A stretch of 64,000 nt of DNA. Origin: a virus (taxonomy: Duplodnaviria > Heunggongvirae > Uroviricota > Caudoviricetes). This document shows positions 4,770 to 19,479 of this stretch, piece after piece. The number at the start of each line of letters is the position of its first letter. Positions within the stretch are counted from its first letter, which is position 1. The notes beneath the pieces are model-generated. The model saw only the letters and a list, made by a program, of their open reading frames with translations, was not told the origin of the DNA and ran no database searches. The translations under genes were made by a program, and so were the position numbers. The stretch spans positions 247,248 to 311,247 of the IMG/VR virus record IMGVR_UViG_3300038345_000251. The stretch is one strand, 5' to 3'.

Positions 4770-4771
4770 AA

Positions 4772-5331: not shown

Positions 5332-5336
5332 ATATA

Positions 5337-5412: not shown

Positions 5413-5415
5413 TAA

Positions 5416-5569
5416 TGGAGCAGGTGAACGGAATCGAACCGTCATAGCCAGATTGTTCAAACACTACGCTTCGGACGTACAATCGTTCTCCCATTTGTTT
5501 GAAATAATTACTCACAGTGAATTGGAACTGTATGGAAGTCTGGCGCACTAACCGTTGTGCTACACCTGC
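5416..5569 (-). tRNA. tRNA-Gly(UCC) interrupted by a 79-nt intron
   Basis: exon1 5569-5534 ends CCAGA-CTTCC; exon2 5454-5416 AA-TCTGG...T-CCA; joining gives a canonical tRNA. Confidence 0.9.
5455..5533 (-). other. AUACRG...C mini-intron in tRNA-Gly(UCC)
   Basis: starts ATACAG; ACAGT/ACTGT pairing; nested stem TTCAAACA/TGTTTGAA with T-like arm; terminal C. Confidence 0.8.
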
Positions 5570-5575
5570 AAAAAC

Positions 5576-5712
5576 AAAAGTCTTTTTACCCTCATTCGGA
5601 TTCGAACCGTTATCTTCAGACTATCTGTCTGCTATTCTACCTATTAAACTACTTATGCAAGGGATTTATTTTGGCGCATACGAAATTGATTATTGATTGC
5701 TGTAAGACTTTT
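5576..5712 (-). ncRNA. stem+ACAGCAA element enclosing a degenerate tRNA body
   Basis: AAAAGTCTT-ACAGCAA...D arm, CAGAC/GTCTG arm, CGG-TTCGAAT-CCG...AAGACTTTT. Confidence 0.55.
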
Positions 5713-5885
5713 TATTAATTTTCTCAGTTTAATTATAACTGTATATGGCGAAGGTTTTTGACCACTCTTTTTACTTACTTAGCTAGCAGTTATTCGATAA
5801 AAAAAGTAAGAAGTTATATCTGAAAGATATTTCGAAATTCTCTTTCATCTACGGAATCAGACACCTTCAAAACCGTAAGCCTCTT

Positions 5886-6617
5886 TTACTGGTTTTTTAT
5901 ATCTTTTTTTCTAAATGGTAAATCGTATTTTTTACACCATTTTCTAACGGCATTATCTGTTACATTATAGATTTTACCAATTTCAACAAAACTTTTTTCT
6001 TTTATCAAGGAACTTAAAACATCTTTTGGCGGAATTGCATTTTTTTTCTTATTGTATGAAATGTTGTTTTTTTCTAAAAATTTGTTTAATGTTTTTCCAG
6101 TTATATGATTTTTTTTATAAATTTCTTTTTTAGGTAATCCGTTGTTAATGTCATTAATTATACTTTCATAATTTAAATAATTAAAAGAATCGTTTGTTTT
6201 ATGTATATAATTATTTTCATTGTAAAATGAAACCTTGTTTTTTTCCTTTTCTTCTTCTTTCTTTTTTTCTTTTTCTTGTCTGATTTTATAATGTATTTCT
6301 CTATGACAGTTAGCACAAAGTAACATACATTTATCAACTTCTTTTTTTAACGTTTCGATATTACATATTTTACTTGCTGAAATATTGAAATCTTTTTGTG
6401 TTGGGTCTTTATGATGAAAGTCAAGTGCTTCAATACACTTGTCATATCCACATATTTCACATTTACCACCTTTATATTCGACAAGTATTTGTTTATAATT
6501 TTTTCTTTTTTTAGCAACAGATTCATAGTTACATTTTTTACATCTTTTTCTTCCTTTTTTGTCAACGGAAAATTCAGTTTTTCCGTGTATCGGACAAAGT
6601 TCTATAATTGTTTCCAT
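5886..6617 (-). CDS. free-standing HNH homing endonuclease with C-terminal HTH (start moved to METII)
   Basis: CxxC..LDFHH..LCANCHREIH HNH motif; ACTATTTATA just upstream. Confidence 0.8.
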   Translation of the reverse strand: METIIELCPIHGKTEFSVDKKGRKRCKKCNYESVAKKRKNYKQILVEYKGGKCEICGYDKCIEALDFHHKDPTQKDFNISASKICNIETLKKEVDKCMLLCANCHREIHYKIRQEKEKKKEEEKEKNKVSFYNENNYIHKTNDSFNYLNYESIINDINNGLPKKEIYKKNHITGKTLNKFLEKNNISYNKKKNAIPPKDVLSSLIKEKSFVEIGKIYNVTDNAVRKWCKKYDLPFRKKDIKNQ

Positions 6618-6687
6618 ATGTTTTTTATTATAAATAGTTTTTGGTTCGAAAAAAATGCGATAATGTAAAAGTTTTTTGTTCGATTTG

Positions 6688-6764
6688 TCGGGACGGCAGG
6701 AATTGAACCTGCATGTAACCAATTACACTTTCAACACCTTATCAGGGTGAGGTGATACGTCCCG
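6688..6764 (-). tRNA. atypical D-arm-less tRNA-Ile(GAU)-like RNA with long extra arm
   Basis: acceptor CGGGACG/CGTCCCG, CACC-CT GAT AA-GGTG, extra hairpin TGTAA/TTACA, T arm GCAGG/CCTGC; only about 7 nt where the D arm should be. Confidence 0.55.
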
Positions 6765-6779
6765 GAGATAAAATACGGA

Positions 6780-6950
6780 TTAAAACTCAACAGGCATACC
6801 CCTAAAAATGTATTTAGTAGAGGTATCGCCTATTTTTCTTCTTCTAAGTTGTTTATGTGCAAGTTTTTTAGTTACTTTTTTTGTTTTTAACCATTGTTTA
6901 TTTGCTTTACCAGCACAATAAAATCCTTTGAAATCTTTTATACTATGCAT
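6780..6950 (-). CDS. small basic hypothetical protein (56 aa)
   Basis: own translation MHSIKDFKGFYCAG...PVEF*. Confidence 0.45.
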   Translation of the reverse strand: MHSIKDFKGFYCAGKANKQWLKTKKVTKKLAHKQLRRRKIGDTSTKYIFRGMPVEF

Positions 6951-6969
6951 ATTATTGAATTTAAAATTG

Positions 6970-7040
6970 TTGGAGTAGAAAGATTCGAACTCTCACTTAC
7001 AGAGCCAGAATCTGTAGTGCTGCCATTACACCATACTCCA
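6970..7040 (-). tRNA. tRNA-Gln(CUG)
   Basis: U1-A72, ACAGA-TT CTG GC-TCTGT. Confidence 0.93.
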
Positions 7041-7049
7041 TAAAAATTG

Positions 7050-7172
7050 TTGGGGGTAGAGGAATCGAACCTCTGTCTCGTCTTTATGAGAGATTTGCTA
7101 AGAAATTGCTGCAAGCTTTTATATCGAAAAGCCTTTTTCGCTTTTCGTATGCTGCCACTACACCAACCCCCA
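7050..7172 (-). tRNA. atypical tRNA(CAU)-like RNA with a ~50-nt stem+GCAGCAA insert in the anticodon stem
   Basis: intact acceptor, D and T arms; TCT-CT CAT AA-AGA; insert GCTTTT/AAAAGC-TT-GCAGCAA. Confidence 0.6.
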
Positions 7173-7179
7173 ATTGTTT

Positions 7180-7386
7180 TTATTTGTCAACTAAATTATT
7201 TCTAAGTCTTTCAAATTCTTTTTTATCTTGTTTATTTTTCTTTTGTAATTTTTCTACTTTGTTATCATTGCTTCCACAATGTCTATCATAGTATTTTTTT
7301 ACTTTAAATGGATAATCATTAAAATCATCACCATAAACACCATGTTTGGATTTTGCTTTTTCAGAATGTAATCTAGTTTTAGACAT
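7180..7386 (-). CDS. small basic hypothetical protein (start moved to MSKTRL)
   Basis: 68 aa; the ORF-track extension overlaps a tRNA-like gene. Confidence 0.5.
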   Translation of the reverse strand: MSKTRLHSEKAKSKHGVYGDDFNDYPFKVKKYYDRHCGSNDNKVEKLQKKNKQDKKEFERLRNNLVDK

Positions 7387-7407
7387 AATTTTATGTTTTA
7401 AAATTTG

Positions 7408-7522
7408 TGTGGATGAACAGATTTGAACTGCTGACACGAAGTTTACCCAAAAAGATGATGCTGTTAATTTCCAGAACTGAAAACATATTGTCTTCTGCTC
7501 TACCAGACTGAGCTACATCCAC
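7408..7522 (-). tRNA. atypical tRNA-Pro(UGG)-like RNA with a stem+ACAGCA insert in the anticodon stem
   Basis: intact acceptor, D and T arms; loop TT TGG GT; insert GTTTTCAG-TT-CTGGAAAT-TA-ACAGCAT. Confidence 0.6.
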
Positions 7523-7531
7523 ATATTAGAC

Positions 7532-7585
7532 GGAAAACGCTTTTCATTGCTACCCAGTAATAATTTAACTTGCTGTGTATTTTCC
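7532..7585 (-). ncRNA. minimal stem+ACAGCAA element
   Basis: GGAAAAT-AC-ACAGCAA...TGGGT...GTTTTCC. Confidence 0.55.
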
Positions 7586-7589
7586 TTTG

Positions 7590-7674
7590 TCGGAGTGGGG
7601 GGATTCGAACCCCCAAGCCCATTACAGGCACAAGTTCCTTAGACTTGCGTGTCTACCAATTCCACCACACTCCG
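7590..7674 (-). tRNA. tRNA-Leu(AAG)
   Basis: class II Leu body, CAAGT-CT AAG GA-ACTTG. Confidence 0.9.
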
Positions 7675-8598
7675 TTTTTTCAAATCTTTTTTCCTATAAG
7701 GTAAATCGTATGATTTACACCATTTCACTATTGTTTTATCACAAACATTATAAAGTTTTGCAATATATCTAAAAGAAAAATTAGTAATTAAATCAAATAA
7801 TTCTTTTTTAGAAGGTCTATTTTTTACTTTTCTTTGTTTTAAATAATACTCATGTTGTTTAATTGTATGTTTTTCATCATATTGCTCAGATTTTTTATAA
7901 TAGTTTGTATATTGTTTACCGTTTTTTGATATTTTTATTTCTCCTTTTGGTACTTTAATTATTCCAATATGAGTAATGTCTTTAATTTTATTATTTGATA
8001 ATAGTTCTTTTAATTTATTATTTATTAAATCATGATTGTTTTTTACTATGTCTTCTGAAATTCTAATAACTTTCCAACCCAAAGAAGTTAATAATAAATC
8101 TTTTTTCTTATCATTTTCTTTTCTTTCTTCATCTAAAAGATGTTGTGAACCATCTATTTCAACCGCAATTTTTTCATTGATAAATGCAAAATCAATATAA
8201 TATGGAAAAATAGATTTCTCTCTTTCAATTAAATATTTTTTATCATATTCATTTTCTTGAAGAAATTTTATAAAACATTTTTCTGGATAAGAAGGTTCAT
8301 TTCTTTTTCTCCAAGCAGTTTCTTCAGGATGTTCTTTTAAATATTTAAGCCTTATTTCTTTTAGTTTTAATTTTGTTTCTTTTGTATGTTTAAAACTCTT
8401 AGGATATTTTTTATGTGACAATGTGATTGATTCTGAAAAATTTCTTGTTATATTACCTAATAGTTTTTCTCTAATCCACATTTTTGATTTAATATTGTAT
8501 TTTTTAACAATATCACGTATTGAACAACCATTTAAATATTCATTTCTTATTTTTTCTTTTTCTTCTTCAGTAAACAAATTATCATATTTTGAACTCAT
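7639..8598 (-). CDS. free-standing DUF559/Vsr-like (PD-D/ExK) homing endonuclease
   Basis: YYIDFAF..KIAVEIDGSQH..D..L...GWKVIRI motif; HTH C-terminus; 3' end overlaps tRNA-Leu. Confidence 0.8.
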   Translation of the reverse strand: MSSKYDNLFTEEEKEKIRNEYLNGCSIRDIVKKYNIKSKMWIREKLLGNITRNFSESITLSHKKYPKSFKHTKETKLKLKEIRLKYLKEHPEETAWRKRNEPSYPEKCFIKFLQENEYDKKYLIEREKSIFPYYIDFAFINEKIAVEIDGSQHLLDEERKENDKKKDLLLTSLGWKVIRISEDIVKNNHDLINNKLKELLSNNKIKDITHIGIIKVPKGEIKISKNGKQYTNYYKKSEQYDEKHTIKQHEYYLKQRKVKNRPSKKELFDLITNFSFRYIAKLYNVCDKTIVKWCKSYDLPYRKKDLKKRSVVELVDTQV

Positions 8599-8672
8599 AA
8601 TTTTATCATTTTATTATAAATATAAGAAAAAAATAAAAACGAACCGATATTTTAAAAAATTTAATGTCCTTG

Positions 8673-8830
8673 TCGTGCATACCAGAATCGAACTGGTGTT
8701 TACAGAATGGGCTTCTTATAAAGTATCGAACTTTCTTCATTCTCACCAAGATTAAAATAAGAAGCTAACTTTTTTCAGATTAAGTTTAACTGTATAAAAT
8801 CTGTCGTCCTAGCCACTAGACGAATGCACG
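8673..8830 (-). tRNA. tRNA-Glu(UUC) interrupted by an 86-nt intron
   Basis: exon1 ends ACAGA-TT TT; exon2 starts C AT-TCTGT. Confidence 0.88.
8710..8795 (-). other. AUACRG...C mini-intron in tRNA-Glu(UUC), position 35/36
   Basis: ATACAG..AACTT..CTGAAA..AAGTT; nested stem GCTTCTTAT/ATAAGAAGC with AAAG-TTCGATA-CTTT arm; terminal C. Confidence 0.8.
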
Positions 8831-8835
8831 AAATT

Positions 8836-8974
8836 TAGTATCTACACGTGAAGCAGGTGTGCACTCCTATCTCTTCACCCTTTTGTATATGTAACACCCA
8901 AGTCATGTTCATATACCTTGCCTCCAAAAGACGCTTGGGAATTTCTTTGAAAACCGTCTTTATCCTTGATACTA
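8836..8974 (-). ncRNA. putative structured intergenic RNA
   Basis: closing stem AGTATC/GATACT, GC-richer than its flanks, no ORF. Confidence 0.25.
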
Positions 8975-8975
8975 G

Positions 8976-9049
8976 TGGAGCGTATCGGAATCGAACCGAT
9001 GACCTCAACATTGCAAGTGTTGCGTTCTAGCCAACTGAACTAACGCCCC
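8976..9049 (-). tRNA. tRNA-Ala(UGC)
   Basis: G3-U70, loop CT TGC AA. Confidence 0.95.
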
Positions 9050-9056
9050 ATAAATC

Positions 9057-9173
9057 GGAAAACTTTATCTTTACGTCCAGTGGACGGGGTTGGACTTGAA
9101 CCAACGAACCTCTCATGTTTTCAATTAAAGTGAAAAATGTTAAACCATTAGCGTAAATTGCTGTATGTTTTCC
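9057..9173 (-). ncRNA. stem+ACAGCAA element with UUA anticodon arm and T arm (permuted tRNA-like)
   Basis: GGAAAAC-AT-ACAGCAA...TTTCA-CT TTA AT-TGAAA...GTTGG-TTCAAGT-CCAAC-CGTCC/GGACG...GTTTTCC. Confidence 0.6.
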
Positions 9174-9174
9174 T

Positions 9175-9249
9175 TGGCGGTGCATACGAGAATCGAACTC
9201 GTACCGCATGATAGACAGTCACGCATCCTAACCATTGGACCAATGCACC
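9175..9249 (-). tRNA. tRNA-Asp(GUC) with encoded CCA
   Basis: loop CT GTC TA, G73-CCA. Confidence 0.93.
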
Positions 9250-9267
9250 GTAAAAAAATGTATAATC

Positions 9268-9381
9268 AGAAAACGTCTTTAAAAATATTTCCATTATCTC
9301 CAAAGGAGACCTTTCAGTTTTTTTGCTGAAAGTTGGATTCGAACCAACAATTTTTTAAGCAAATGTTGCTGTATGTTTTCT
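9268..9381 (-). ncRNA. stem+ACAGCAA element with a T arm followed by a hairpin
   Basis: AGAAAAC-AT-ACAGCAA...GTTGG-TTCGAAT-CCAAC-TTTCAG/CTGAAA...GTTTTCT. Confidence 0.6.
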
Positions 9382-9585
9382 TAATACAAATATACTAATA
9401 AATAATTTAAAAGTCAATAAAACGAAGCATATATATTTTCTTTAGATAATACACGTCTGTATTAAATAGGTCATCATTGATTGCCTTTGGGTACATTGTT
9501 CCTTATCTCATACTATAAGTCAATGGTTTGCTACCGTCACAATCGGTTTTTGCTTCTGGCTTGTTAGGTATGAACTAACAAGTTG

Positions 9586-9804
9586 TGGGAAGGGGAGGAT
9601 TCGAACCTCCGAAGCCGTAAGGCAGCAGATTGTTCCATATAACTGATTCGAACAGTTGATTGCAAGTTTTTAACTTACTCCGACTTTATAACATTTTTTT
9701 GTTACCGTAAGCCTACGACTTTGACCACTTGTCTAATATGGAATTTGGTTTTCAGTTTGCTCTGTATTACAGTCTGCCCCATTTGACCACTCTGGAACCT
9801 TCCC
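9586..9804 (-). tRNA. tRNA-Tyr(GUA) interrupted by a 136-nt intron
   Basis: class II Tyr body; exon1 ends GCAGA-CT GTA; exon2 AA-TCTGC. Confidence 0.9.
9632..9767 (-). other. AUACRG...C mini-intron in tRNA-Tyr(GUA)
   Basis: ATACAG..CTGAAA; nested tRNA-like domain TTCCATAT/ATATGGAA with D arm GAC-AAGTGGTCAAA-GTC and T arm AACTG-TTCGAAT-CAGTT; terminal C. Confidence 0.8.
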
Positions 9805-9810
9805 ATTTAT

Positions 9811-10401
9811 TTACTGTATTAAAACACCTTGTTTGTTTTTTCTAGGTTTATAACCTGTTCTACCTAATTTCCAACCATTGTTTAAATATTCTTGAAGTTT
9901 TTCTTTTAATAAATATTTAACTTTACCTTCTTTATTAATCCAAATTCTTTTGTTTGTTGAATTTTCAGGTAACATTTTTTTTCTTGTTTTTTGTTTTGAT
10001 TCTTCTTTATGGTGTCTATTTTTCCATATAGTATTAAAAGAATCTTTGTTGTTTAAATAGATTTCTTGACTAATCCAAAATTTTTCACCATTTTTGTCTA
10101 TAACTGGTACCATTCCATTAGTACTAAAATACTTACCACCTATTTGAACATTATAGCAATTTTCATCTTTTATTAAAGTTTCATTTACTATTTCCTTTTC
10201 ATATAAAAAGGCTTCTTCTGATGTATTAAAATATTTTAATATTTCTTTTTTAAAGCATTCTATTCCATATTTAATAATTGCTTTTTTAAGAAATTTTCCA
10301 GAACCCATATAACCGTCATCAATATTATCTGTGTTATGTACACCATAATAATATTTGTTGTTAATGGTGTTTGTAATTTTATAAAAATAATGATATTTCA
10401 T
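9811..10401 (-). CDS. free-standing Seg-like GIY-YIG homing endonuclease
   Basis: YFYKITNTINNKYYYGVH..DDGYMGSG N-terminus. Confidence 0.8.
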   Translation of the reverse strand: MKYHYFYKITNTINNKYYYGVHNTDNIDDGYMGSGKFLKKAIIKYGIECFKKEILKYFNTSEEAFLYEKEIVNETLIKDENCYNVQIGGKYFSTNGMVPVIDKNGEKFWISQEIYLNNKDSFNTIWKNRHHKEESKQKTRKKMLPENSTNKRIWINKEGKVKYLLKEKLQEYLNNGWKLGRTGYKPRKNKQGVLIQ

Positions 10402-10595
10402 AACATTTACAGTTTCTTTTTATATAAATAGTAGAAAAACTGTAAATGTAAAGTTTTTTTTCAAAAAAATAACCGATTATACACGAACTCGGTAAACATT
10501 CCTGACTTAACGATTCAGATGGCGATTATTGCTGCAAGAGCAACCACGTGTTTCGATTCCTGGTACCTAGGACCGCACATTTTAACATCATAAAA

Positions 10596-10868
10596 ACAGT
10601 ATTAAGGAACTTTATTTGGTATCTGGCTGTAACCTTATATGCCATATTGCAATTTGTTTATTCTTCGAACAACATATAAGAGCTTCACACACCATTAGAG
10701 AGTTGACCGTAAAGGCTGTTCTTCCTGTTTGAACTATTCCGTCTTCCCTTCGTGTTATCCTTAGTGTGTACCATTGAGGTCATACGTTTTGTGTTCGATT
10801 CACTACGTACTAACGGTTAATCCGTTCACTGCTCTCCCAGCTTGTTCCTGAACTCCTAATAATACTGT
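10596..10868 (-). ncRNA. putative ~270-nt structured ncRNA
   Basis: closing stem ACAGTATTA..GGAAC/GTTCC-TTAATACTGT, no ORF. Confidence 0.35.
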
Positions 10869-10880
10869 AAAGTTATATCG

Positions 10881-10954
10881 TGGGAGTGGTTGGATTCGAA
10901 CCAACGTCTTTCATCTTGTAAGGATGACAGTCTATACCACTGGCGTACACTCCC
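10881..10954 (-). tRNA. tRNA-Val(UAC)
   Basis: TCATC-CT TAC AA-GATGA. Confidence 0.93.
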
Positions 10955-11107
10955 AAAAGCACCACATTTACGGTAACGTGGTCAACCAAGTAATTACTCA
11001 ACGAGTAATATAAGTAAAATACCTACTGATGGAGTAACATATCACACTTAGTTACTCACCATCCCTCCAGTGTGTGAATCCCTTAAAATCTTTCTTACCT
11101 CGGTATT

Positions 11108-11653
11108 TTATTGATAATCTTCAGTTTGTCTAATTCCAAATTTATGAAAGTATCGCAAAGGTCTCCATTTTTTACCATTAACGATAAATCCCCATTTAAT
11201 TTTAGGTCTACCTTCAAACATTAAAGTCCAAGCACCACCTTTAGGAATCTGTAAATAATGTAAGTCTTCTGCTTTTGAAAACCATATTGAATCATCCATA
11301 TTGAAGAAGTTTTTCCAAGAATTGAAAATACCTTCAACGTAACATTTCCGTTGGTTTTTAACTTCATAAGGCGTTCCGTCTTTCCATATTGTAACAGTAT
11401 CGTCAGGATTCTTATTATCTTCGTAAGGCTTTACATTCCAATAATGTCCTTTTAGAACAATACTGAGTAAGTTAGCACTATGGTCGTGAAAATATCTGTT
11501 ATCATCACTTTTAATCCAATGATGTATTCTCATTGAATAACCAAAGAAGATAAAAGTCCATCTAATTAAATAAGGTGCTTCAGGAATACCAAGTTTTTCT
11601 GCCCATCTAATTTGAAAGTTTTTAAATGGTTTCGTGTTTGTACTTCCTTTCAT
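11108..11653 (-). CDS. cupin-like phage protein
   Basis: RIHHWIKSDDNRYFHDH..LSIVLKGHYWN His-rich motif. Confidence 0.55.
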   Translation of the reverse strand: MKGSTNTKPFKNFQIRWAEKLGIPEAPYLIRWTFIFFGYSMRIHHWIKSDDNRYFHDHSANLLSIVLKGHYWNVKPYEDNKNPDDTVTIWKDGTPYEVKNQRKCYVEGIFNSWKNFFNMDDSIWFSKAEDLHYLQIPKGGAWTLMFEGRPKIKWGFIVNGKKWRPLRYFHKFGIRQTEDYQ

Positions 11654-11679
11654 AAAATTTTAATTAAAATTAAACTTTG

Positions 11680-11817
11680 TCAAGGGTGAAGGATTCGAAC
11701 CCCCTGGATTCATCTGGAACGTCTAGAATACCCAAACTATCCCCTTTCGGTCTTCCCTATGTATCTGCTGTTAGCTACTCAGCAGTAAGGCTGTTTTACC
11801 AATTAAACTAACCCCTG
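11680..11817 (-). tRNA. tRNA-like RNA with a large insert replacing the anticodon arm
   Basis: acceptor CAGGGGT/ACCCTTG, D and T arms intact; insert has CTGCTG/CAGCAG hairpin with ACAGCAG, CC-GAAA-GG and TTTGGGT. Confidence 0.5.
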
Positions 11818-11825
11818 TAAATTTG

Positions 11826-11900
11826 TGTGCCCTGAATGAATCGAACATCCGCATTTTCTGGGACGTAAATCCCATTGGTCTGCCACTAGCCTAAAGACAC
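11826..11900 (-). pseudogene. atypical tRNA-Val(UAC)-like RNA with a 6-nt anticodon loop
   Basis: TGGGA-TTTACG-TCCCA, extended variable region. Confidence 0.5.
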
Positions 11901-12196
11901 ATTTCTCACCTAAGATTAACACGATTTTATCTGTCATTCTCACGCACTAGGTACATTCTTGTTTTTTGTGCTGTTCTCACCCCTTTTATGACCCCTAGAC
12001 GCTACTCTATGCATCCTATATTTGGAATTAATGATGCTACCCTACGTCCACACTCATCATAACGTTTAACTGTGGCTTCCATTACCTGTTCCAATCATTT
12101 AATGGACTCCCCCACAGTGAAGCTGTTAATCGGATTTCAACGCTCTCTATTGAAGATTTGAACTTCTACATACCCTAGTAATAGAAAAATATAAAC

Positions 12197-12327
12197 AGGA
12201 AACGTTTTTTGTTTTGTTTTCGCCACTAAACTAACAATGAGAACACACAATCTCATTGTGGGGGATTCGAACCCACCGTCTTCTTTTTTGCAGAAAGTTA
12301 ACAATTTAAAATTGCTGTATGTTTCCT
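12197..12327 (-). ncRNA. circularly permuted tRNA-Cys-like RNA inside a stem+ACAGCAA bracket
   Basis: order: AGGAAAC-AT-ACAGCAA, CTTT-CT GCA AA-AAAG, T arm, ACAATGAG/CTCATTGT acceptor hairpin, D arm, GTTTCCT. Confidence 0.65.
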
Positions 12328-12564
12328 TATCTTATTGTTTTGTGTGTTTTTATTTCAAAAAAATGATGGATGCACAACCACTTCCTATTCCATCATTGTG
12401 TCATTACGTTTTGTGCCAACGTACCCAATTCCACAACACTTATTGGGTAACTTCGTGTAGTTTCAACAATCAAATTACTAAGATTGTAATGGACAGCCAA
12501 AGTAAACTTTGGAACTAATGTAACCACCATTAAATTTCTGCCGTTGTTACGAAAAATAATTCTC

Positions 12565-12633
12565 GGAAAACTAAATTTTAGCGTTTCTGAATTAAAAGTT
12601 CGGAGCTTAAATAAAAGTTGCTGTACGTTTTCC
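12565..12633 (-). ncRNA. stem+ACAGCAA element with a Lys(UUU) anticodon hairpin
   Basis: GGAAAAC-GT-ACAGCAA...TCCGAA-CT TTT AA-TTCAGA...GTTTTCC. Confidence 0.6.
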
Positions 12634-12690
12634 TATATTTTATATTTCTGATACAAATATACAAACTTATTTTTAAAAAAACAAAATTTT

Positions 12691-12772
12691 CAGGGACTTA
12701 CACTGTTTTAATCATGCCTAAACTAACTATCTATTGATAGTGGTGGAATCAAACCAACCTTCTGATGCCAAG
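12691..12772 (-). ncRNA. permuted tRNA-like fragment (T arm, acceptor hairpin, D arm)
   Basis: TGG-TTTGATT-CCA, ACTATC-AATA-GATAGT, TA-GTTT..AAAC. Confidence 0.45.
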
Positions 12773-12948
12773 CGGAAGCGGAGGGATTTGAACCCACGAC
12801 CCACGGATTAGCTTGATGTGTGGAATACGATACCACAATTCGAACTGCAAATGCTACGAGTTTTTCCTTAAACTACATCAAAACATGTTCGTTTCGGTGA
12901 ACAATTCCGTATACAGTCCGTTGCTCTGACCAACTGAGCTACGCTTCC
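12773..12948 (-). tRNA. tRNA-Asn(GUU) interrupted by a 102-nt intron
   Basis: exon1 ends ACGGA-CT GT; exon2 T AA-TCCGT; G73. Confidence 0.9.
12811..12912 (-). other. AUACRG...C mini-intron in tRNA-Asn(GUU), position 35/36
   Basis: ATACGGAATT-GTTC-ACCGAAAC-GAAC; nested TTGATGT/ACATCAA domain; terminal C. Confidence 0.82.
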
Positions 12949-12955
12949 AAAGTTA

Positions 12956-13050
12956 AAACACTTGTTATCAGCCGATTAGAAGTAAGTCTTTCAAAGCATT
13001 GAATTTTAATGAGGTCTGCTTCCTCCTGTACACTTACTAAACAAGTGTTA
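12956..13050 (-). ncRNA. putative ~95-nt structured RNA
   Basis: 10-bp closing stem AACACTTGTT/AACAAGTGTT, inner AGTAAGT/ACTTACT and GAGG/CCTC. Confidence 0.35.
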
Positions 13051-13057
13051 TAAGTAG

Positions 13058-13235
13058 TACTCTCGTTGGGATTCGAACCCAAGACCCACAGCTTAGAACC
13101 CATAATGAGATTCGAACTCAATATTCATTACCTTAGCAATGTTCTATCCTAAATAGAAATTATGGGTTAATAAATCCGTTTCGGTGGATAATTCCGTATG
13201 AAGGCTGTTGCTCTATCCAACTGAGCTACGAGAGC
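13058..13235 (-). tRNA. tRNA-Arg(UCU) interrupted by a 104-nt intron
   Basis: exon1 ends ACAGC-CT TC; exon2 T AA-GCTGT. Confidence 0.9.
13096..13199 (-). other. AUACRG...C mini-intron in tRNA-Arg(UCU)
   Basis: ATACGGAATT-ATCC-ACCGAAAC-GGAT; nested cloverleaf AACCCATAAT/ATTATGGGTT with D, AC-like and T arms; terminal C. Confidence 0.82.
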
Positions 13236-13277
13236 ATCTATATTTTAGTTAAAAAATAAATTCAAAGTAAATGGTTA

Positions 13278-13610
13278 TTAGAGGATTTCCCTAACAATAC
13301 CATAAATGTTATTTCTGCTAATCCAACCGTTCATATGACCGTGATTATTACCAATCAAGTAAGATGAACCTTTTTTGTTGGTTTTAATAGAATGAATTAA
13401 ATGAAGATAATAATGTCCATTTACTTTTGAAAGAACTATATCTCTTTTTTTTAATTCAGTTTCTTCAGTAACAGGTTCGCATATTACAGGTTGTTTAGAT
13501 TTTAAAATTGGTGTCATAGAATTACCAATTCCTGTAATTTTGCAGGTTTCTCCGTTACGAAGATGTTCAGCAGAAAAACGATTTTCAAAACCACTATAAG
13601 TGTATTCCAT
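13278..13610 (-). CDS. S24/S26 peptidase-like protein
   Basis: GNSMTPIL...LHLIH...GNN pattern. Confidence 0.65.
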   Translation of the reverse strand: MEYTYSGFENRFSAEHLRNGETCKITGIGNSMTPILKSKQPVICEPVTEETELKKRDIVLSKVNGHYYLHLIHSIKTNKKGSSYLIGNNHGHMNGWISRNNIYGIVREIL

Positions 13611-13657
13611 AATCGTTATTTTTATTGAAATTATTATTAATTAAGGCTTATGCCTTG

Positions 13658-14001
13658 TGGACCAGAGCAGGGTCGAACTGCTGTCTTAAATACCGTCAAC
13701 AAAAAAATTGGTTACAAGCTTTACTATGTTCGTTCCTGAAGTCTATAAACATAGAAGAACTGAAAGTTACAGGAAGAACGATTTTAATTCGAATATTTTT
13801 TTGTTCTATCCTAGTTTAAAAATATTCTATTGTATCTTCTGTTTCCAGGTTTTACAAGACCCAGCAATACTTAGGCAATAGCGTAAGCGTATGCAAGTTG
13901 GTTTTCACTAACTTTGTCGTTTGTTGTTTGTAGAATTTTAAGTGTCACCACTACTTGTTTTCTTGTCAACTAATATCCAATCAAAACCAAAATACTGGCC
14001 C
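13658..14001 (-). ncRNA. ssrA: tmRNA; predicted tag (A)TNDKVSENQLAYAYAIA
   Basis: GGGCCAG/CTGGTCC-A acceptor with G3-U70, T arm, internal tag ORF 13924-13871. Confidence 0.88.
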
Positions 14002-14020
14002 ATTCTGTATATTTAATTTG

Positions 14021-14093
14021 TGACCCCGAAGGGACTTGAACCCTTGACCCCAGCATTAAAAGTGCCGTGCTCTACCAACTGAGCTACGAGGCC
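14021..14093 (-). tRNA. tRNA-Lys(UUU)
   Basis: loop CT TTT AA. Confidence 0.95.
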
Positions 14094-14107
14094 ATTAGTC
14101 TTAAGTG

Positions 14108-14180
14108 TGGTGTGGGGTGGAGTTGAACCACCGACACATGGATTTTCAGTCCATTGCTCTACCACCTGAGCTACCACACC
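14108..14180 (-). tRNA. tRNA-Phe(GAA)
   Basis: ATGGA-CT GAA AA-TCCAT. Confidence 0.95.
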
Positions 14181-14261
14181 ATATTTAAAAATTTTTATAT
14201 CGTCAAAAATATCTGAAAAAACGATGGATTCATACCATAGGCTATTAAGCAACCTTTCATG

Positions 14262-14333
14262 TACTCCCAATAGGAATCGAACCTATATTACTGGTTCCGT
14301 AGACCAACGTTTTATCCGTTAAACTATGGAAGC
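14262..14333 (-). tRNA. tRNA-Arg(ACG)
   Basis: loop CT ACG GA. Confidence 0.93.
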
Positions 14334-14349
14334 AGAACAGTTATGGTGT

Positions 14350-14424
14350 TGGCAGGAGTTAGAGGATTCGAACCCCTACCTGTGGTTTTGGAGACCAATA
14401 TGCTACCATTAACACCAAACTCCT
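14350..14424 (-). tRNA. tRNA-Trp(CCA) with encoded CCA
   Basis: loop CT CCA AA, G73. Confidence 0.93.
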
Positions 14425-14436
14425 ATATATTTTTTC

Positions 14437-14514
14437 GGAAAACAAAGTTGATTTATCATTCCAATTACCCTAAAATTGTGATTAAATTAAATTAAAATTT
14501 GCTGTATGTTTTCC
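14437..14514 (-). ncRNA. stem+ACAGCAA element with a Pro(AGG) anticodon hairpin
   Basis: GGAAAAC-AT-ACAGCAA...CAATT-TT AGG GT-AATTG...GTTTTCC. Confidence 0.6.
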
Positions 14515-14707
14515 TGTTTTTTTCCACGAAGGGAGAAGTCTAACTCCCACTTCGTTTAACGACTTTTTACTACCATAATGAATCTTCGAAGATACCCAAA
14601 TAAGATGTAGCCGTTATGAATTCGTTAATCAACAGTGCATCTGTGCCATAAAAATGGTTGATGTTGTCCGCTTTCACGTACTATTTAGGTAATTCATTAA
14701 AATATTT

Positions 14708-14788
14708 GCTATGGCAAGAGGAATCGAACCTCTGTCTCCACGTGCTATACTAAAGCTAGACGTCCTGTACCACTAGACGATACCACAG
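14708..14788 (-). tRNA. atypical tRNA-like RNA with 8-bp acceptor stem and ambiguous anticodon arm
   Basis: CTGTGGTA/TGCCATAG; Glu/Asp-like D arm; loop readable as CT TTA GT or TT AGT AT. Confidence 0.45.
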
Positions 14789-14800
14789 ATAAGTTTTATT

Positions 14801-14901
14801 CCACAAAGTATTGCTTGCTGCGTAGTCCGTTTTCGATTATCGGATTCAAACTTATAAAGCATCATAACCGTCAATGCTTCTACGCCCTGGGCACTTTGTG
14901 A
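14801..14901 (-). ncRNA. putative ~100-nt multibranch RNA
   Basis: CACAAAGT/ACTTTGTG, GCGTAG/CTACGC, AAGCAT/ATGCTT, TCCG/CGGA stems. Confidence 0.4.
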
Positions 14902-14906
14902 TTTTG

Positions 14907-14981
14907 TCGGGAAGACAGGACTCGAACCTGCGACCCCTGGTTCCCAAAACCAGTGTTCTGAACCAACTGAACTACTTCCCG
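14907..14981 (-). tRNA. tRNA-Pro(UGG)
   Basis: CTGGT-TT TGG GA-ACCAG. Confidence 0.95.
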
Positions 14982-15090
14982 ATAATTAAAAAAGTTAAAA
15001 TATAGCTAGCAGATAATAACTGACTACTTCTTGTTTTTTAATGACGTGCCATTTCGTCTCCAAGCCCATATCTGTATAATTTTAACTTTG

Positions 15091-15164
15091 TTGCGTAGAC
15101 TGGATTTGAACCAGTGACCGATAGGATATGAATCTATTGCTACTACCAACTGAGCTACTACGCA
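15091..15164 (-). tRNA. tRNA-Met(CAU)
   Basis: loop TT CAT AT; initiator versus elongator not resolved. Confidence 0.85.
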
Positions 15165-15295
15165 ATATTTGATAGAACCCAACGAAACTATCTGTCCTTG
15201 ATTTCTTTCTTAGTATTATTGTCCACTGCATTTGTGGCTTCAAGGTAGTTAATAAATGAATGCATCATTACATCAACTAAAGGGTTTTTGATTTG

Positions 15296-15882
15296 CGGAG
15301 AGTATAGGATTCGAACCTATGGACCGAAAAACGGTCAACAGTTTTCCTTACCACTATAGTTTTCACTACCAACAATATCATCATGGATTGCACATTTATA
15401 ACAATCTTTATATCAGGATTGCTCCCGTGCCAGGTGCTCCTATTGTTGTTTTGTGGTCTGGAACATACCTCAACCAATATTGAAATCTTGCAAGTATGGC
15501 TGTTACAAGGAAAGAATAATTCATTTCCATCTATAACCAATTTCAACTTAGGTTATTACCATCTGTTCTCTACACACTGTCTATTATTAATCCTAATGCT
15601 TTCACATGCAATGCAGAAGTATTTTTCCATTAGGATTATTTTAACATTGGCTCGGTATTAGCATATTTGGACTGTCCTCTTCCGTCTGAATTCTAAACGA
15701 TGCTTCTGTGTTACCACCAGCATTAATCAGGAATGGTTTGTTATTTAGACGATTATCCGATATATTCCTGCACATCCAAACTTAGCCTTCACCGAATTTG
15801 GTAATTTCTACATTATAAATTTCTTTATAAGCACTCAAATTAACTTTAAGACTGCCGCAATCGACCACTCTGCCAACTCTCC
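15296..15882 (-). tRNA. tRNA-Ser(UGA) interrupted by a group I intron
   Basis: exon1 ends GCAGT-CT T; exon2 GA AA-ACTG; class II Ser body, G73. Confidence 0.9.
15347..15847 (-). mobile_element. group I intron (501 nt, no endonuclease ORF) at tRNA position 34/35
   Basis: 5' exon ends in U, intron ends in G; P/Q/R/S-like cores AATTCGGTGAAG, AATACCGAGC, GTAGAGAACAGA, GAGGTATGTTCCA. Confidence 0.85.
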
Positions 15883-16066
15883 GAAAAAAATGAAACTTAT
15901 TCTGAACTCTCTCACGATTATAATAAATATTAACTTCCAGCCTTTGACTTGCACGTTAACAGACATTATCACCACTTAGGTATTCTGACACTACAGAGGT
16001 TATTTAAAATAAATGTTTATTCAACATTACTGTCAGTATTTATTTCATTAGAATATCTCTCTAGTA

Positions 16067-16188
16067 TGCTACAGGTAGGAATCGAACCTACGAAATTGAA
16101 TATTGTTGTGCCAAATTCAAATAACAGTTTCATCCATAGTCACACTTTAGGAATCAACCATTGTGTTGGGCCACTTCACCACTATAGC
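16067..16188 (-). tRNA. atypical tRNA-like RNA with enlarged anticodon/variable region (possible Arg-CCU loop)
   Basis: acceptor GCTATAG/CTGTAGC, D and T arms intact; TT CCT AA in a poorly paired arm. Confidence 0.45.
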
Positions 16189-16289
16189 CTTTGAGACAGT
16201 TTTTATCAGAATCAATATCACATATCATCTGATATTTAATATACAGTATTTACCAACATGTCAAAGAACATTGTTTCGTAAAAACATTA

Positions 16290-16297
16290 CAAAGATA
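16290..16297 (-). promoter_or_regulatory. Bacteroidetes-type -7 promoter element (TATCTTTG) feeding the tRNA array
   Basis: TAnnTTTG consensus; similar sites at 3912, 9387, 12654 and 17101. Confidence 0.6.
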
Positions 16298-16425
16298 CGA
16301 AGAATTTTTTAATTTTCCAAATCTTTTGTAATTTATTTCTTCATTTATTATTTTGAAGAACTTTTTTTTACATAATCAAGAAATATGCCAAGTTTTTTAA
16401 TTTAACAAATTTTTTGATTTATTTG

Positions 16426-16506
16426 TAGCCCTGAAAGGACTTGAACCTTCACGCCTGTGGCATCCGCTTTTGAGACGGACGTGTCTACCAATTCCACCAC
16501 AGGGCC
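16426..16506 (-). tRNA. tRNA-Leu(CAA)
   Basis: class II Leu body, CT CAA AA. Confidence 0.93.
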
Positions 16507-17272
16507 ATATAATAAAAGGTTATCGTTATAATAGATGTGCCTTAGATTTACACCTCTCACGGAAGGTTTGAGTAAACTTTCGTTCTACACTCGCTAACAC
16601 TCATGAATGTTAGTATCTTTAAAGTAACCTCAACTACTTTTATTCCGACTATACCATTTCACACTCTGTACACAAGCGGTAATTTTATACTTGGCCATAC
16701 TCTTTGTCATTAAATTACTAAGTGTTCATCATCCTTAATGAATTTACTTTTCCTAATAACCTATGTTTTTATTTCAATGAACTTCGTTTATGTTTCTAAC
16801 AATAACCGTGCCACGTTTTTTATACATATTATTTATAAAAAAAACCCCCGAAGTTTTTATCTTGGAGGTTGGGAATATATTGTGGTTAGAAACCTATGTG
16901 TCTTGTTTTTTCTTTATTCCTTCTCCAAGGTTAAGCATCCAAGTTCTCTTCTTGATGCTTTTGGGTCAATAACTGATGGTACGCCAAACCAACGACTTGC
17001 TGATTCCAAGCCGTTAAATTTGTGATTATATGTACACATCATTTTATTCATATCATTAAGGTTTAAAGAAATTACTCAAATATAAATATAAAACTTTTTA
17101 CAAAAATACGTAATTTTTATAAAAAAAACAAATATTTTTTTAATTTTTTTTGAAGAACTATGGGATTCGAACCCAAATAATGCCTTACCATTAGTTCTTA
17201 ACCTTGGTTTTGAACGTATAAACGCCCATCTCCACCACCAAATTTTATTTATTGTCGTTATTGGCCGACATT

Positions 17273-17344
17273 GTGATGTATATAGGAATCGAACCCATCT
17301 TGTCACGTTTAGAGTGTGCCGTTCTACCGATGAACTAATACATC
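17273..17344 (-). tRNA. amber suppressor tRNA(CUA)
   Basis: GATGTAT/ATACATC-A, D and T arms canonical, loop CT CTA AA; anticodon stem has only 3 central pairs. Confidence 0.75.
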
Positions 17345-17389
17345 AAAATGGGGATTTATAAGGGAAATCCCCAAAACCATAATAATAAG

Positions 17390-17677
17390 TTATTTAACCG
17401 TTTCCAAATTCTTAAAAAGTTCACCTGAATCGTCTCTTACCGCGAGTGCTGTAATTGTATAGTTCAAATCAGGTTCACGAAATGCTGAAAATCTAATTCC
17501 CATTTTTTGAAGTCTGTTAAACCACTTATCAGTATCTGCATACAAATATATAAGGTATTCATTGTTCCAATCTTGATTAGGGTTGTTAATCATCCATTGT
17601 GCCACAGCATGTCCACCTTGAACACATCCATATACAGGTCTAAGTTTTTTATTCACTAATACGTACAATCTTTTCAT
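17390..17677 (-). CDS. peptidyl-tRNA hydrolase-like (PTH2-type) protein
   Basis: LYVLV...VQGGHAVAQW...FREPDL...TALA pattern. Confidence 0.65.
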   Translation of the reverse strand: MKRLYVLVNKKLRPVYGCVQGGHAVAQWMINNPNQDWNNEYLIYLYADTDKWFNRLQKMGIRFSAFREPDLNYTITALAVRDDSGELFKNLETVK

Positions 17678-18116
17678 AATTTTCTAAATCAAAATTTTTT
17701 TCAAGTACTTTTTCACCAAACCAATTTTTTGTTTCTTTCACAGTATATGGTAATTCATATCCATATTCATTAAGAAAGTTATTAATTTCTGAGAGATACA
17801 ATGTTAAAGGATGTTTACCTTCAAACTTTGCGTTTGGATAATAACCGTGCAATTTGTAATATTCTTCTCTTTCAATTGGTTTAGAATTTTTTTCAGTTAT
17901 TTCAAAATTTTTACCCCTTAAAAGATTATAAGCTGCATACATTATTCGTAATTCATCTTTATTTGATAATACTTTGAAGTATGCATCTGATGGGTCAATT
18001 GTTCTTGTACCTGTAAAATGTACTGTTTTTCTTTGTGGTTTAATAATTTTTTGTTCGTTTTCTTTTTCAGCAATTCTTGCTCTAACTTCTTTAATAATTT
18101 TGTCCATAATATTCAA
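17649..18116 (-). CDS. hypothetical protein
   Basis: 155 aa ORF overlapping the PTH-like gene. Confidence 0.6.
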   Translation of the reverse strand: MNIMDKIIKEVRARIAEKENEQKIIKPQRKTVHFTGTRTIDPSDAYFKVLSNKDELRIMYAAYNLLRGKNFEITEKNSKPIEREEYYKLHGYYPNAKFEGKHPLTLYLSEINNFLNEYGYELPYTVKETKNWFGEKVLEKNFDLENYEKIVRISE

Positions 18117-18270
18117 TTTTTTAATTAATTATTCTTTTATTTTTACACAAATTCCTAACCAACCTTAAAAATTGAATATATTACGGAGGGTTTAAACTTA
18201 AAATCTAGTGTGTCATAACTTTACGTTTTTAAACATTATTATTATTGCTACAAATATATAATAATTTTCA

Positions 18271-19479
18271 TTAAAAATCAAGTTTTTTTAGATTAGATTC
18301 TGGAGAATCATTAATATAAACATTATTAAAACGAATATCAGTAGCAAAGAATCTAAACAATTCACCAACCCTATCTTTTAAAGTACGATTATCATTATCA
18401 ATAGATGAATTAAAATTTTGTCGTTTATCATGAAAGATAAAATTATATTCATCTATATTGTCTAACAAATCCCAATGAGTAACAACCATATTAAATGTCA
18501 GATTATATAATTTCCAATAATTATCAAGGCAATGTCTATTGTATGCTTCATTCAATAAATCAAAGTTCATTATACCTGTTTTAAATACACCTTGATATTG
18601 GTTTTCAACATTAGTTTCATGCTTGTTACTTAAGTCAAAATTAAATCCATATTGACAAGGAGTATAACCATTACCATGTCTTGTTAAATACGTTCTACTA
18701 ACAAGATAAACTTCAGCATTTTGAAGTAATTTTTCAAGGATAACATCATCAGTAAATGCATTTAATCCTGTTTTTGATGGGGTAACATTGGGGTAAAACC
18801 CTCTATCCATATCAAGTAATAATCCCTGACTACCTTCAAATATTAAAACATCAAATGTTGCTAATGCAATTACTCCTGCAACGTTAAAGAATTTATATTT
18901 ATCGTTTTCAACATCTTTTATTAATTGTTTATAAATGGTACTTTCAACTGAATCAAATGCTTTATCATTCTCATAATAGTAATAATCAAGGTCTGATAAT
19001 GTATTTAAATCAGTAAAATTATCTGGATAAACATGAAAGCCATCTTTATCACGTTTAAATGTTGGATAAATACCCCTTCCACAAGTACCATCACGTAGTA
19101 CTTTAGCATTTCTTCTACCATTTGCAACATCATAAGGTGTTACAATACGTGTTTTAGGCATAACATATAGTGGTGGTACTTTTTTAATTTTTTTCTTTAA
19201 TATTTCATATTCTAATTTAGCATCAAGAGGATTAAAATAGGTTGTATTCCAAATAAGTGTTGGTACTCCTAATAATACACCACTACCATATGTTGAACAA
19301 ATATGTTCTATACCATTATATTGAATGGTATGTGCTGCTTGTGGACCCCCACTAAAGCGAATAACCAGGGGTTTTTTCCCCTGGTCAATTGCTTTTTTGC
19401 ATAAATACTGTACGGTTACTCCTTTTCCTTCATCACCAAAAGCAGAACCTAATACAATTTTAACTTCTTTGTTTTCCAT
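18271..19479 (-). CDS. divergent adenylosuccinate synthetase-like protein
   Basis: GDEGKG, RFSGGPQAAHT, GTCGRG, FEGSQGLLLD, YPNVTPS, RTYLTRHGNG motifs. Confidence 0.85.
   Translation of the reverse strand: MENKEVKIVLGSAFGDEGKGVTVQYLCKKAIDQGKKPLVIRFSGGPQAAHTIQYNGIEHICSTYGSGVLLGVPTLIWNTTYFNPLDAKLEYEILKKKIKKVPPLYVMPKTRIVTPYDVANGRRNAKVLRDGTCGRGIYPTFKRDKDGFHVYPDNFTDLNTLSDLDYYYYENDKAFDSVESTIYKQLIKDVENDKYKFFNVAGVIALATFDVLIFEGSQGLLLDMDRGFYPNVTPSKTGLNAFTDDVILEKLLQNAEVYLVSRTYLTRHGNGYTPCQYGFNFDLSNKHETNVENQYQGVFKTGIMNFDLLNEAYNRHCLDNYWKLYNLTFNMVVTHWDLLDNIDEYNFIFHDKRQNFNSSIDNDNRTLKDRVGELFRFFATDIRFNNVYINDSPESNLKKLDF

Follow-up and report, generated by a model that had tools for sequence, protein, structure and literature searches.

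We found that two neighboring, interrupted tRNA genes of a large phage, tRNA-Asn(GUU) and tRNA-Arg(UCU), carry introns that begin with nearly the same module of 26 to 27 nucleotides (nt). The genes lie in the 64,000-nt stretch of DNA analyzed here (the window), which comprises bases 247,248 to 311,247 of virus record IMGVR_UViG_3300038345_000251, a sequence of 392,823 bp that is rated complete. The match between the two modules is real and is not due to chance, and the module is the most conserved part of a wider intron family. Taken together, our comparisons suggest that the shared sequence is the 5' splice-site module of very small anticodon-loop introns of large phages, and our best guess for the removal of these introns is protein-assisted splicing. 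We put the probability of this joint proposal at roughly 45%.

The first 17 kb of the window contain about 27 tRNA genes and a transfer-messenger RNA (tmRNA) gene, all on the minus strand. According to the Rfam tRNA model, several genes of this array have a long insert in the anticodon loop, including tRNA-Asn, for which a short variable loop and G73 favor Asn identity over Tyr, and tRNA-Arg, 110 bp away (Table 1). Read on the minus strand, the Asn loop is CUGU-insert-UAA and the Arg loop is CUUC-insert-UAA. Deleting 12811-12912 and 13096-13199 leaves 7-nt anticodon loops, CUGUUAA (Asn) and CUUCUAA (Arg). The Asn junction can be placed in only one way, given that its flanking bases differ; the Arg junction can slide by up to 3 nt, as exon 1 and the intron both end in UUC.

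On the minus strand, the Asn intron begins (12912 down to 12887) with AUACGGAAUU-GUUC-ACCGAAAC-GAAC, and the Arg intron begins (13199 down to 13174) with AUACGGAAUU-AUCC-ACCGAAAC-GGAU. The two copies differ at only 4 positions, which make up two compensatory base pairs. All 4 differences fall within the 4+4 positions of a stem, and pairing is kept (G-C to A-U and U-A to C-G). We estimate the chance of 4 random changes among 26 positions behaving this way at about 5e-5. With the variable bases masked, the pattern ATACGGAATTNNNNACCGAAAC has exactly two matches in the 392,823-bp genome, both of them in these introns, and the reversed control has none. These results bear out a sequence-only reading of the window, which had first pointed to a near-identical 5' module with compensatory changes. 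The stem that it saw is also real: it covaries across 8 distinct modules, with 38/40 cells paired, and only 3/20,000 permutations were as good. The same reading held that the loops are identical and that only paired bases change. The differences do lie only in the stem, but ACCGAAAC is itself partly helix, as its CCG pairs with the CGG at intron bases 4 to 6. Because of this second pairing, the module is a pseudoknot and not a hairpin with a passive loop.

We assembled 19 distinct introns of 62 to 136 nt, which interrupt six tRNA types (Asn, Arg, Gly, Glu, Tyr, and Phe) in several phages, including Lak-A1. Members were collected from public collections with exon/intron-junction patterns that assume no intron structure and with a descriptor scan, whose matches were retained only if they had a terminal C, the first stem of the module (S1), a closing stem, and a T-arm. 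The junction patterns recovered tRNA-Asn introns in ten further contigs, including the Lak-A1 megaphage (MK250015.1), and tRNA-Arg introns in two (contigs L170 and L171). Scanning the same contigs added one tRNA-Tyr and one tRNA-Phe intron. The window's own tRNA-Phe gene (14107-14180) is intron-less. Searching IMG/VR with the exact module pattern gave two matches (L003 and L004), which we rejected as chance, both being in coding sequence and lacking stem complementarity. In 401 Bacteroidales genomes, the module core gave about 110 matches against about 65 for the reversed control, and the family was not found there in a tRNA context; the 10 best complementary matches were all outside tRNA genes, 8 of them in apparent coding sequence.

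All 19 introns start with AUAC.G and end with C, and the elements invariant in 19/19 are AUA, the 3-bp S1, and the final C. The three bases of AUA are unpaired and come immediately after the 5' splice site. Removing the insert restores a perfect 7-nt loop in every case. The splice position is 35/36 in Asn, Arg, Glu, Phe, and one Tyr gene and 36/37 in Gly and the window Tyr gene. Since the position varies with the intron across tRNAs, the sites are set by the intron and not by the tRNA. The last base of exon 1 is U (Asn and Glu), C (Arg and Gly), or A (Tyr and Phe), and the terminal C is followed by UAA, CAU, AAU, or AAA. The array's sole genes for Asn GUU, Arg UCU, Gly UCC, Glu UUC, and Tyr GUA are the intron-bearing ones. 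We infer that the introns are spliced because the exons are intact and conserved, the loop is perfectly restored, and the array has no other genes for those anticodons.

We found that the module has a common fold across the family. In S1, intron bases 4 to 6 (CRG) pair with a CYG located 4 to 11 nt downstream. S1 is CAG/CUG in 13 members and CGG/CCG in 6, and no member is mixed or mismatched. The state of S1 switches even among introns that are otherwise 86 to 88% identical, with CGG in the window and contig L125 and CAG in L008. Nine members have a second stem, S2, of 4 to 8 bp (usually 5 rather than 4), in which the S1 loop is paired with bases located 3' of S1; this is the stem seen in the sequence-only reading. 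S2 occurs in eight versions (UGUUC/GAACA, AGUUC/GAACU, GGUUC/GAACC, GGUUC/GAACU, AAUUC/GAAUU, AUCC/GGAU, AAUCUG/CAGAUU, and AUGA/UCAU), and its outermost pair is U-A, A-U, G-C, or G-U. The strand order, S1-5', S2-5', S1-3', S2-3', is that of an H-type pseudoknot, and both stems covary. Loop L1 is 3 nt (ARU), L2 is 0 to 1 nt, and L3 is A-rich and 4 to 5 nt long. That S1 and S2 covary across distant phages indicates that an RNA fold is under selection.

No S2 could be made out convincingly in the remaining ten members, whose usual form is CAG-AGUAAA-CUG with an A-rich tail such as AAAAUCAAA behind it. S2 is therefore under selection in the members that have it, and the family can exist without it. 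Folding the module by itself with a nearest-neighbor model, which cannot see pseudoknots, gave no signal (z scores of +0.55 and -0.24); the support for the fold is the covariation. A GGAAU/AUUCC pairing in the minimum free energy (MFE) fold of the Asn intron was discarded, as it is not conserved in L008.

Downstream of the module, the nested domains are unrelated in sequence and alike in design. Past base 27, identity between the Asn and Arg introns is 58%, no higher than the mean for shuffled sequence (58%). To this extent the earlier claim that the 3' domains are unrelated stands, but they share a strict architecture of closing stem, T-arm, and single C. In 18/19 introns, an ungapped helix of 8 to 10 bp ends exactly 1 nt before the 3' splice site; in the exception, L133, the closing helix is interrupted. 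A T-arm hairpin of 4 to 5 bp lies directly 5' of the 3' strand of the closing stem, and its loop is closed by G-C. The T-loops are UUCGAAU, UUCGACU, UUCGAUU, or UUCAAGU, with UAUCGUAUU in the window-Asn lineage and AUCGUAA in L133, which is also the T-loop of the L133 phage's own tRNA-Asn. Closing stem and T stem together come to 12 to 13 bp (18/19 members), compared with 12 in tRNA, and thus have the form of a tRNA minihelix.

The 8-bp helix of the Asn intron stops 1 nt before the 3' splice site (21/500 shuffles were as good), and its closing stem covaries with those of L008 and L125 (A-U to G-C). The closing helix of the Arg intron is 10 bp (3/500 shuffles as good), and the MFE fold of its domain consists of the closing stem and three hairpins (z = -2.47). 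Some nested domains, such as those of Arg and Tyr, are nearly complete cloverleaves, and the Tyr domain (9633-9742) scores 34.3 bits on the Rfam tRNA model. At the other extreme, the smallest member (the L171 Arg intron, 62 nt) consists only of the pseudoknot and a bare minihelix. BLAST of the Arg nested domain found no relative across the sequence collections used.

We also found that modules and domains have parted company. The window tRNA-Asn and that of L129 have identical exons and 27/27 identical module bases, and the remainder of their introns is no more alike than shuffled sequence; L127 has yet another nested domain. From this exchange of domains in nature, it seems that what counts in the 3' domain is its architecture alone. 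In L006, the Asn and Tyr introns likewise share 26/27 module bases and have unrelated remainders. The L006 Tyr(GUA) intron and the L121 Phe(GAA) intron are 91.8% identical throughout (lengths of 84 and 85 nt). Judged from these comparisons, modules and nested domains recombine freely.

Intron-less tRNA-Arg(UCU) genes are present in the related contigs L129 (194-269), L127 (1251-1325, minus strand), and L008 (419-491), each of which also has an intron-bearing tRNA-Asn. These contigs share the Arg-Asn neighborhood or the Asn intron with the window, and the L129 Arg gene is orthologous. The modules of the L170 and L171 Arg introns are quite unlike that of the window Arg intron. The simplest reading is that the window Arg intron would be a recent, lineage-specific gain beside an older Asn intron, with its module derived from the Asn neighbor. 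Movement of the module between tRNA genes, which the sequence-only reading had proposed, is thus supported by the presence/absence polymorphism at Arg and by the near-identical Tyr and Phe introns. A DNA insertion of the IS200/IS605 type was considered and rejected, as there is no conserved target sequence 5' of the insertions.

Two open reading frames (ORFs) resembling homing endonucleases (7639-8598 and 9811-10401, both on the minus strand) lie within the array and adjoin the intron-bearing Glu and Tyr genes. One is DUF559/Vsr-like with helix-turn-helix domains, and the other is weakly GIY-YIG/SegE-like. It is possible that these ORFs drive intron spread by collaborative homing.

Table 1. 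Coordinates of the interrupted tRNA genes, their introns, and related features (window positions unless another sequence is named)
Feature	Position	Strand	Remarks
tRNA-Asn(GUU) gene including intron	12773-12948	-	Rfam tRNA, 53.7 bits; 105-nt anticodon-loop insert
tRNA-Asn exons	exon 1, 12913-12948; exon 2, 12773-12810	-	
Asn intron	12811-12912	-	102 nt; between nucleotides 35 and 36; starts AUAC, ends C
Asn 5' module	12886-12912	-	H-type pseudoknot; S1 and S2 covary across family
Asn module, AUA and S1	AUA, 12912-12910; CGG, 12909-12907; CCG, 12897-12895	-	
Asn module, S2	UGUUC, 12903-12899; GAACA, 12890-12886	-	L3 is AAAC
Asn nested tRNA-like domain	12812-12882	-	closing stem UUUGAUGU (12882-12875)/ACAUCAAG (12819-12812)
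Asn T-like hairpin	12836-12820	-	GUGG-UAUCGUAUU-CCAC; abuts 3' strand of closing stem; unpaired C, 12811
tRNA-Arg(UCU) gene including intron	13058-13235	-	Rfam tRNA, 50.6 bits; 107-nt insert
tRNA-Arg exons	exon 1, 13200-13235; exon 2, 13058-13095	-	
Arg intron	13096-13199	-	104 nt; at 35/36 by homology; same site in L170 and L171 Arg introns
Arg 5' module	13174-13199	-	AUA, 13199-13197; S1 CGG (13196-13194)/CCG (13184-13182)
Arg module, S2	AUCC, 13189-13186; GGAU, 13177-13174	-	
Arg nested cloverleaf-like domain	13097-13168	-	closing stem AACCCAUAA (13168-13160)/UUAUGGGUU (13105-13097)
Arg T-arm	13120-13106	-	UGAG-UUCGAAU-CUCA; unpaired C, 13096
Family member in tRNA-Gly(UCC)	5455-5533	-	79 nt; verified by eye and descriptor scan
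Family member in tRNA-Glu(UUC)	8710-8795	-	86 nt; at 35/36; verified by eye and descriptor scan
Family member in tRNA-Tyr(GUA)	9632-9767	-	136 nt; at 36/37; verified by eye and descriptor scan
L006 Tyr intron	L006, 2965-3048	+	
L121 Phe intron	L121, index 1154-1239 of reverse complement	-	
Phage gene	genome, 223176-223571	-	listed with the PF09414, RlaP-like, and CCA-adding enzyme genes

We compared the family with known introns and processing elements and found that it fails the defining tests of each known intron class compared. Rfam models were run with cmscan over 5300-13300 at E values up to 10 and over 1-20000 at E values up to 1. No Rfam intron, ribozyme, or riboswitch model matched the introns in 5300-13300 at E values up to 10. 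Group I introns (in Leu-UAA, fMet, Ile, and Arg-CCU genes; Azoarcus type) likewise sit in the anticodon loop, are sporadic and mobile, and occur in bacteria and phages without protein splicing machinery. In group I introns, exon 1 ends in U (the U-G pair of P1) and the intron ends in omega-G. Here exon 1 ends in U, C, or A, and 19/19 introns end in C; at 62 to 136 nt, the introns gave no Intron_gpI match for a P3-P9 core at E values up to 10. Nor do they look like group II introns (5' GUGYG, 3' AY, and domain V), as they start with AUAC(R)G, end with NC, do not fit in size or fold, and have no Rfam match.

The bulge-helix-bulge (BHB) introns of archaea and eukaryotes, which are cut by EndA/TSEN and joined by RtcB or Trl1, are likewise short and located in or near the anticodon loop, and proteins excise them while the tRNA body keeps the halves together. 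When we inspected the Asn and Arg junctions, a BHB could not be drawn at 35/36 or 36/37. A bulge at 34-35/+1 requires exon nucleotides 30 to 33 to pair with the 3' end of the intron and a helix to start from nucleotide 37, and both are absent. EndA (PF01974) is absent from the phage; the control search was positive only in archaea. In mitochondrial "tRNA punctuation" and in MALAT1 mascRNA (RNase P and RNase Z), a tRNA or minihelix mimic within a longer RNA sets the cleavage site. The introns resemble these systems in that the predicted cleavage site follows an acceptor-like stem by one unpaired nucleotide. Unlike them, the mimic is inside the anticodon loop of another tRNA, its flanks would be rejoined, and a separate 5' module marks the other cut.

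Among small ribozymes, hammerhead, hepatitis delta virus (HDV)-like/theta, twister, twister-sister, pistol, hatchet, and hairpin models had no match over any intron in the cmscan searches. An HDV-like fold, in which AUACGG would pair with UCGUAU of the Asn T-like loop, was rejected, as the pairing does not covary in L008 and has no Arg counterpart. Theta ribozymes are small, pseudoknotted, HDV-like RNAs that are located downstream of gut-phage tRNAs and process phage tRNA transcripts (PMC10879173). They cut at their own 5' end, and the family introns are also small, structured pseudoknot RNAs. In contrast to theta ribozymes, the introns have no P1 partner for bases 1 to 7 and no nested double pseudoknot, and they lie inside tRNAs and not downstream of them.

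The closest published description is that of Lak megaphages, whose tRNAs have "enigmatic" short, highly conserved anticodon-loop introns, one with a predicted nested tRNA (Devoto et al. 2019, PMC6784885). Those introns were checked against Rfam, and in the passages considered here no class or mechanism is given. The family fits this description: its members are short, conserved, placed in the anticodon loop of large-phage tRNAs, and sometimes equipped with a nested tRNA. The 93-nt tRNA-Asn intron of Lak-A1 (MK250015.1) matches the family in its AUAC at the 5' end, its S1 hairpin, its closing stem and T-arm, and its last base, C, and its module is 26/27 identical to that of L007. The existence of such introns is thus already known from Devoto et al. 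2019 (PMC6784885). The passages considered say nothing of an AUAC...C rule, a pseudoknot module, minihelix geometry, or modular exchange. In open-access papers and bioRxiv, we found nothing after Devoto et al. 2019 that defines or explains such introns. As far as we found, then, these four features are new, as is the grouping of window and Lak introns as one family.

These features suggest how the introns could be removed. According to our model, they would be excised from the RNA while the tRNA body clamps both halves. The minihelix and its "discriminator-like" C would offer the 3' splice site to an RNase Z-type tRNA 3'-end endonuclease, which would leave a 5'-phosphate. In tRNA 3'-end processing, RNase Z cuts just past the one unpaired base that adjoins the minihelix, where no CCA follows, and the introns fit this geometry within 1 bp. 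The other cut, at the 5' splice site, would be hydrolytic, be guided by recognition of AUA and the pseudoknot, and leave a 3'-OH. With a 5'-phosphate left on exon 2 by RNase Z, exon 1 would have to end in a 3'-OH, and the joining enzyme would be an ATP-dependent RNA ligase. This ligase, which would seal the halves, could come from the host or be one of the two PF09414 enzymes of the phage. In S2, the compensatory changes would preserve the fold and may also prevent mispairing of adjacent, cotranscribed introns.

Outside the window, the phage genome has two genes of the PF09414 RNA-ligase family, encoding about 225 amino acids each (28532-29026 and 218811-219335, both on the minus strand), and the second adjoins a weak RlaP-like gene. 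The phage also has a gene for a CCA-adding enzyme, and the ligase/CCA set forms a toolkit for tRNA repair and maturation. RtcB was not found in the phage. In 4/4 sizeable intron-bearing phage genomes tested, PF09414 was present and RtcB was absent.

Several points weigh against protein-assisted splicing. The splicing, the cleavage sites, and the end chemistry are all predicted, and the nuclease at the 5' site has no named candidate. In pseudoknot substrates of RNase P, cleavage occurs where the helix that is paired to the 3' end begins (PMC12710915). We rejected RNase P for the 5' site, as the cut there sits 3 nt upstream of S1 and not at a helix start. The stacked helix is 13 bp in most members as opposed to 12 in tRNA, and an RNase Z cut after the terminal C is plausible to within 1 nt. 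The co-occurrence of ligase genes counts for little because RNA ligase genes are common in large phages. Finally, the strictly conserved AUA and terminal C could just as well belong to the active site of a ribozyme.

We discarded one set of RNA sequencing data as evidence either way. Loose ends of contigs from four bovine-gut RNA runs matched spliced tRNA-Arg with the exact junction. The 27-mer across the spliced Arg junction is found in at least 120 bacterial species among the matches listed, including many Bacteroidales, and in over 110 viral contigs. Because the 27-mer is so widespread, these contigs are most likely ordinary bacterial tRNA-Arg. Other bovine-gut RNA-library contigs span unspliced Tyr exon-intron junctions (9648-9787, with 1 base different, and 9512-9737, with 9 bases different and 3 gaps); they may stem from precursor RNA or from contaminating DNA.

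The foremost alternative to protein-assisted splicing is a new small ribozyme, formed by the 5' module with or without the T-loop domain, that carries out 5' self-cleavage or both splicing steps while the tRNA body holds the exons. This is in line with the sequence-only reading, which took the module for a selected functional or catalytic core. AUA and S1 could be either a protein recognition tag or a ribozyme active site. The splice site is fixed 3 nt upstream of a conserved, compact pseudoknot, and AUA, S1, and the last C are invariant in 19/19 members. The splice position follows the intron (35/36 or 36/37) and not the tRNA, as expected of an autonomous element, and the spread between tRNA genes and phages resembles that of self-splicing introns. 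The theta ribozymes beside phage tRNAs offer a precedent (PMC10879173). On the other hand, about 4 unpaired nucleotides outside the T-loop are invariant, S2 is missing from the simple subtype, and the nested domains are freely swapped for any tRNA-like minihelix. Known small ribozymes have roughly 10 to 13 invariant unpaired nucleotides. There is also no Rfam ribozyme match, and the module alone is thermodynamically unstable (z of about 0). Because invariant nucleotides are few, S2 is dispensable, and the 3' domain is interchangeable, a catalytic role of the module appears somewhat disfavored, and we consider the ribozyme doubtful. More doubtful still is a hybrid of RNA and protein splicing, which would make the family a fourth type of tRNA intron, distinct from group I/II and BHB introns. 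In such an intron, a pseudoknot of about 25 nt would act as ribozyme or cofactor at the 5' site, the minihelix would borrow the tRNA 3'-end machinery, and the tRNA body would be the exon clamp.

It is improbable that the likeness of the modules reflects only recent gene conversion between adjacent introns, with the module acting mainly at the DNA level to interrupt the site that the array's free-standing homing endonucleases recognize ("collaborative homing") and the splicing signal located elsewhere. The 110 bp between the Asn and Arg genes would suit gene conversion, as would the two L006 introns with their near-identical modules and unrelated remainders. Homing would fit the patchy presence and absence of introns and the two endonuclease-like ORFs (DUF559 and GIY-YIG) that adjoin the Glu and Tyr genes. 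However, gene conversion leaves unexplained why the only 4 differences are two compensatory pairs and why S1 and S2 covary across distant phages. Against homing, no endonuclease ORF lies directly beside Asn or Arg, the neighboring ORF (13278-13610) being S24-like.

A lower probability still goes to retention of the inserts, by which the interrupted genes would be dead tRNAs or mere carriers that release a nested tRNA-like RNA. This would agree with the RNA-library contigs over unspliced Tyr junctions (e.g., 9648-9787), and splicing itself is deduced here from sequence features. Yet the exons are intact and canonical across divergent phages, the genes are the array's only ones for five anticodons, and each removal gives a perfect 7-nt loop. 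Least credible is a riboswitch-like pseudoknot (compare preQ1-I) that senses a ligand or factor and gates splicing or tRNA maturation in infection: a compact H-type pseudoknot of about 27 nt with an A-rich L3/tail has the size of the smallest riboswitches, and Asn and Tyr are queuosine tRNAs, but no Rfam riboswitch matched at E values up to 10, S1 is just 3 bp, the loop sequences vary, and the family also occurs in Arg, Gly, Glu, and Phe tRNAs.

To our knowledge, every tRNA intron of bacteria or phages that is understood to date is a group I ribozyme. The family introns are 2 to 4 times smaller and outside the known classes, yet they are conserved by covariation, and they have spread among tRNA genes of megaphages that abound in gut and rumen, Lak phages among them. 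The anatomy of module and handle makes the "enigmatic intron" puzzle of 2019 testable at the bench. Should the pathway prove new, it would provide a minimal splicing system and a compact, programmable RNA-processing cassette. It could also link tRNA introns, homing endonucleases, and anticodon-directed conflict between phage and host.

We made several minor observations in the same tRNA array. Two tRNA-like genes (7408-7522 and 11680-11817, both on the minus strand) have inserts of about 40 to 65 nt in the anticodon arm; these do not start with AUAC, are without a minihelix, and represent a different kind of interruption. An orphan AUACAG...CUG module at 5744 (minus strand) lies outside any recognizable tRNA and could be a decayed family member or a chance match. 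About 85 nt downstream of it, just upstream of tRNA-Gly, is a weak tRNA-like element (5587-5658, minus strand; Rfam tRNA, 23.5 bits). The tmRNA gene (13655-14001, minus strand; Rfam, 49.2 bits) lies within the array, and one RNA-library contig joins 14002 back to 13666 there ("goes back 337"), which could reflect a circular or tandem form or an assembly artifact. At the end of the array (17273-17344, minus strand) is a tRNA with the anticodon CUA, of the amber suppressor type, which may be a sign of TAG recoding.

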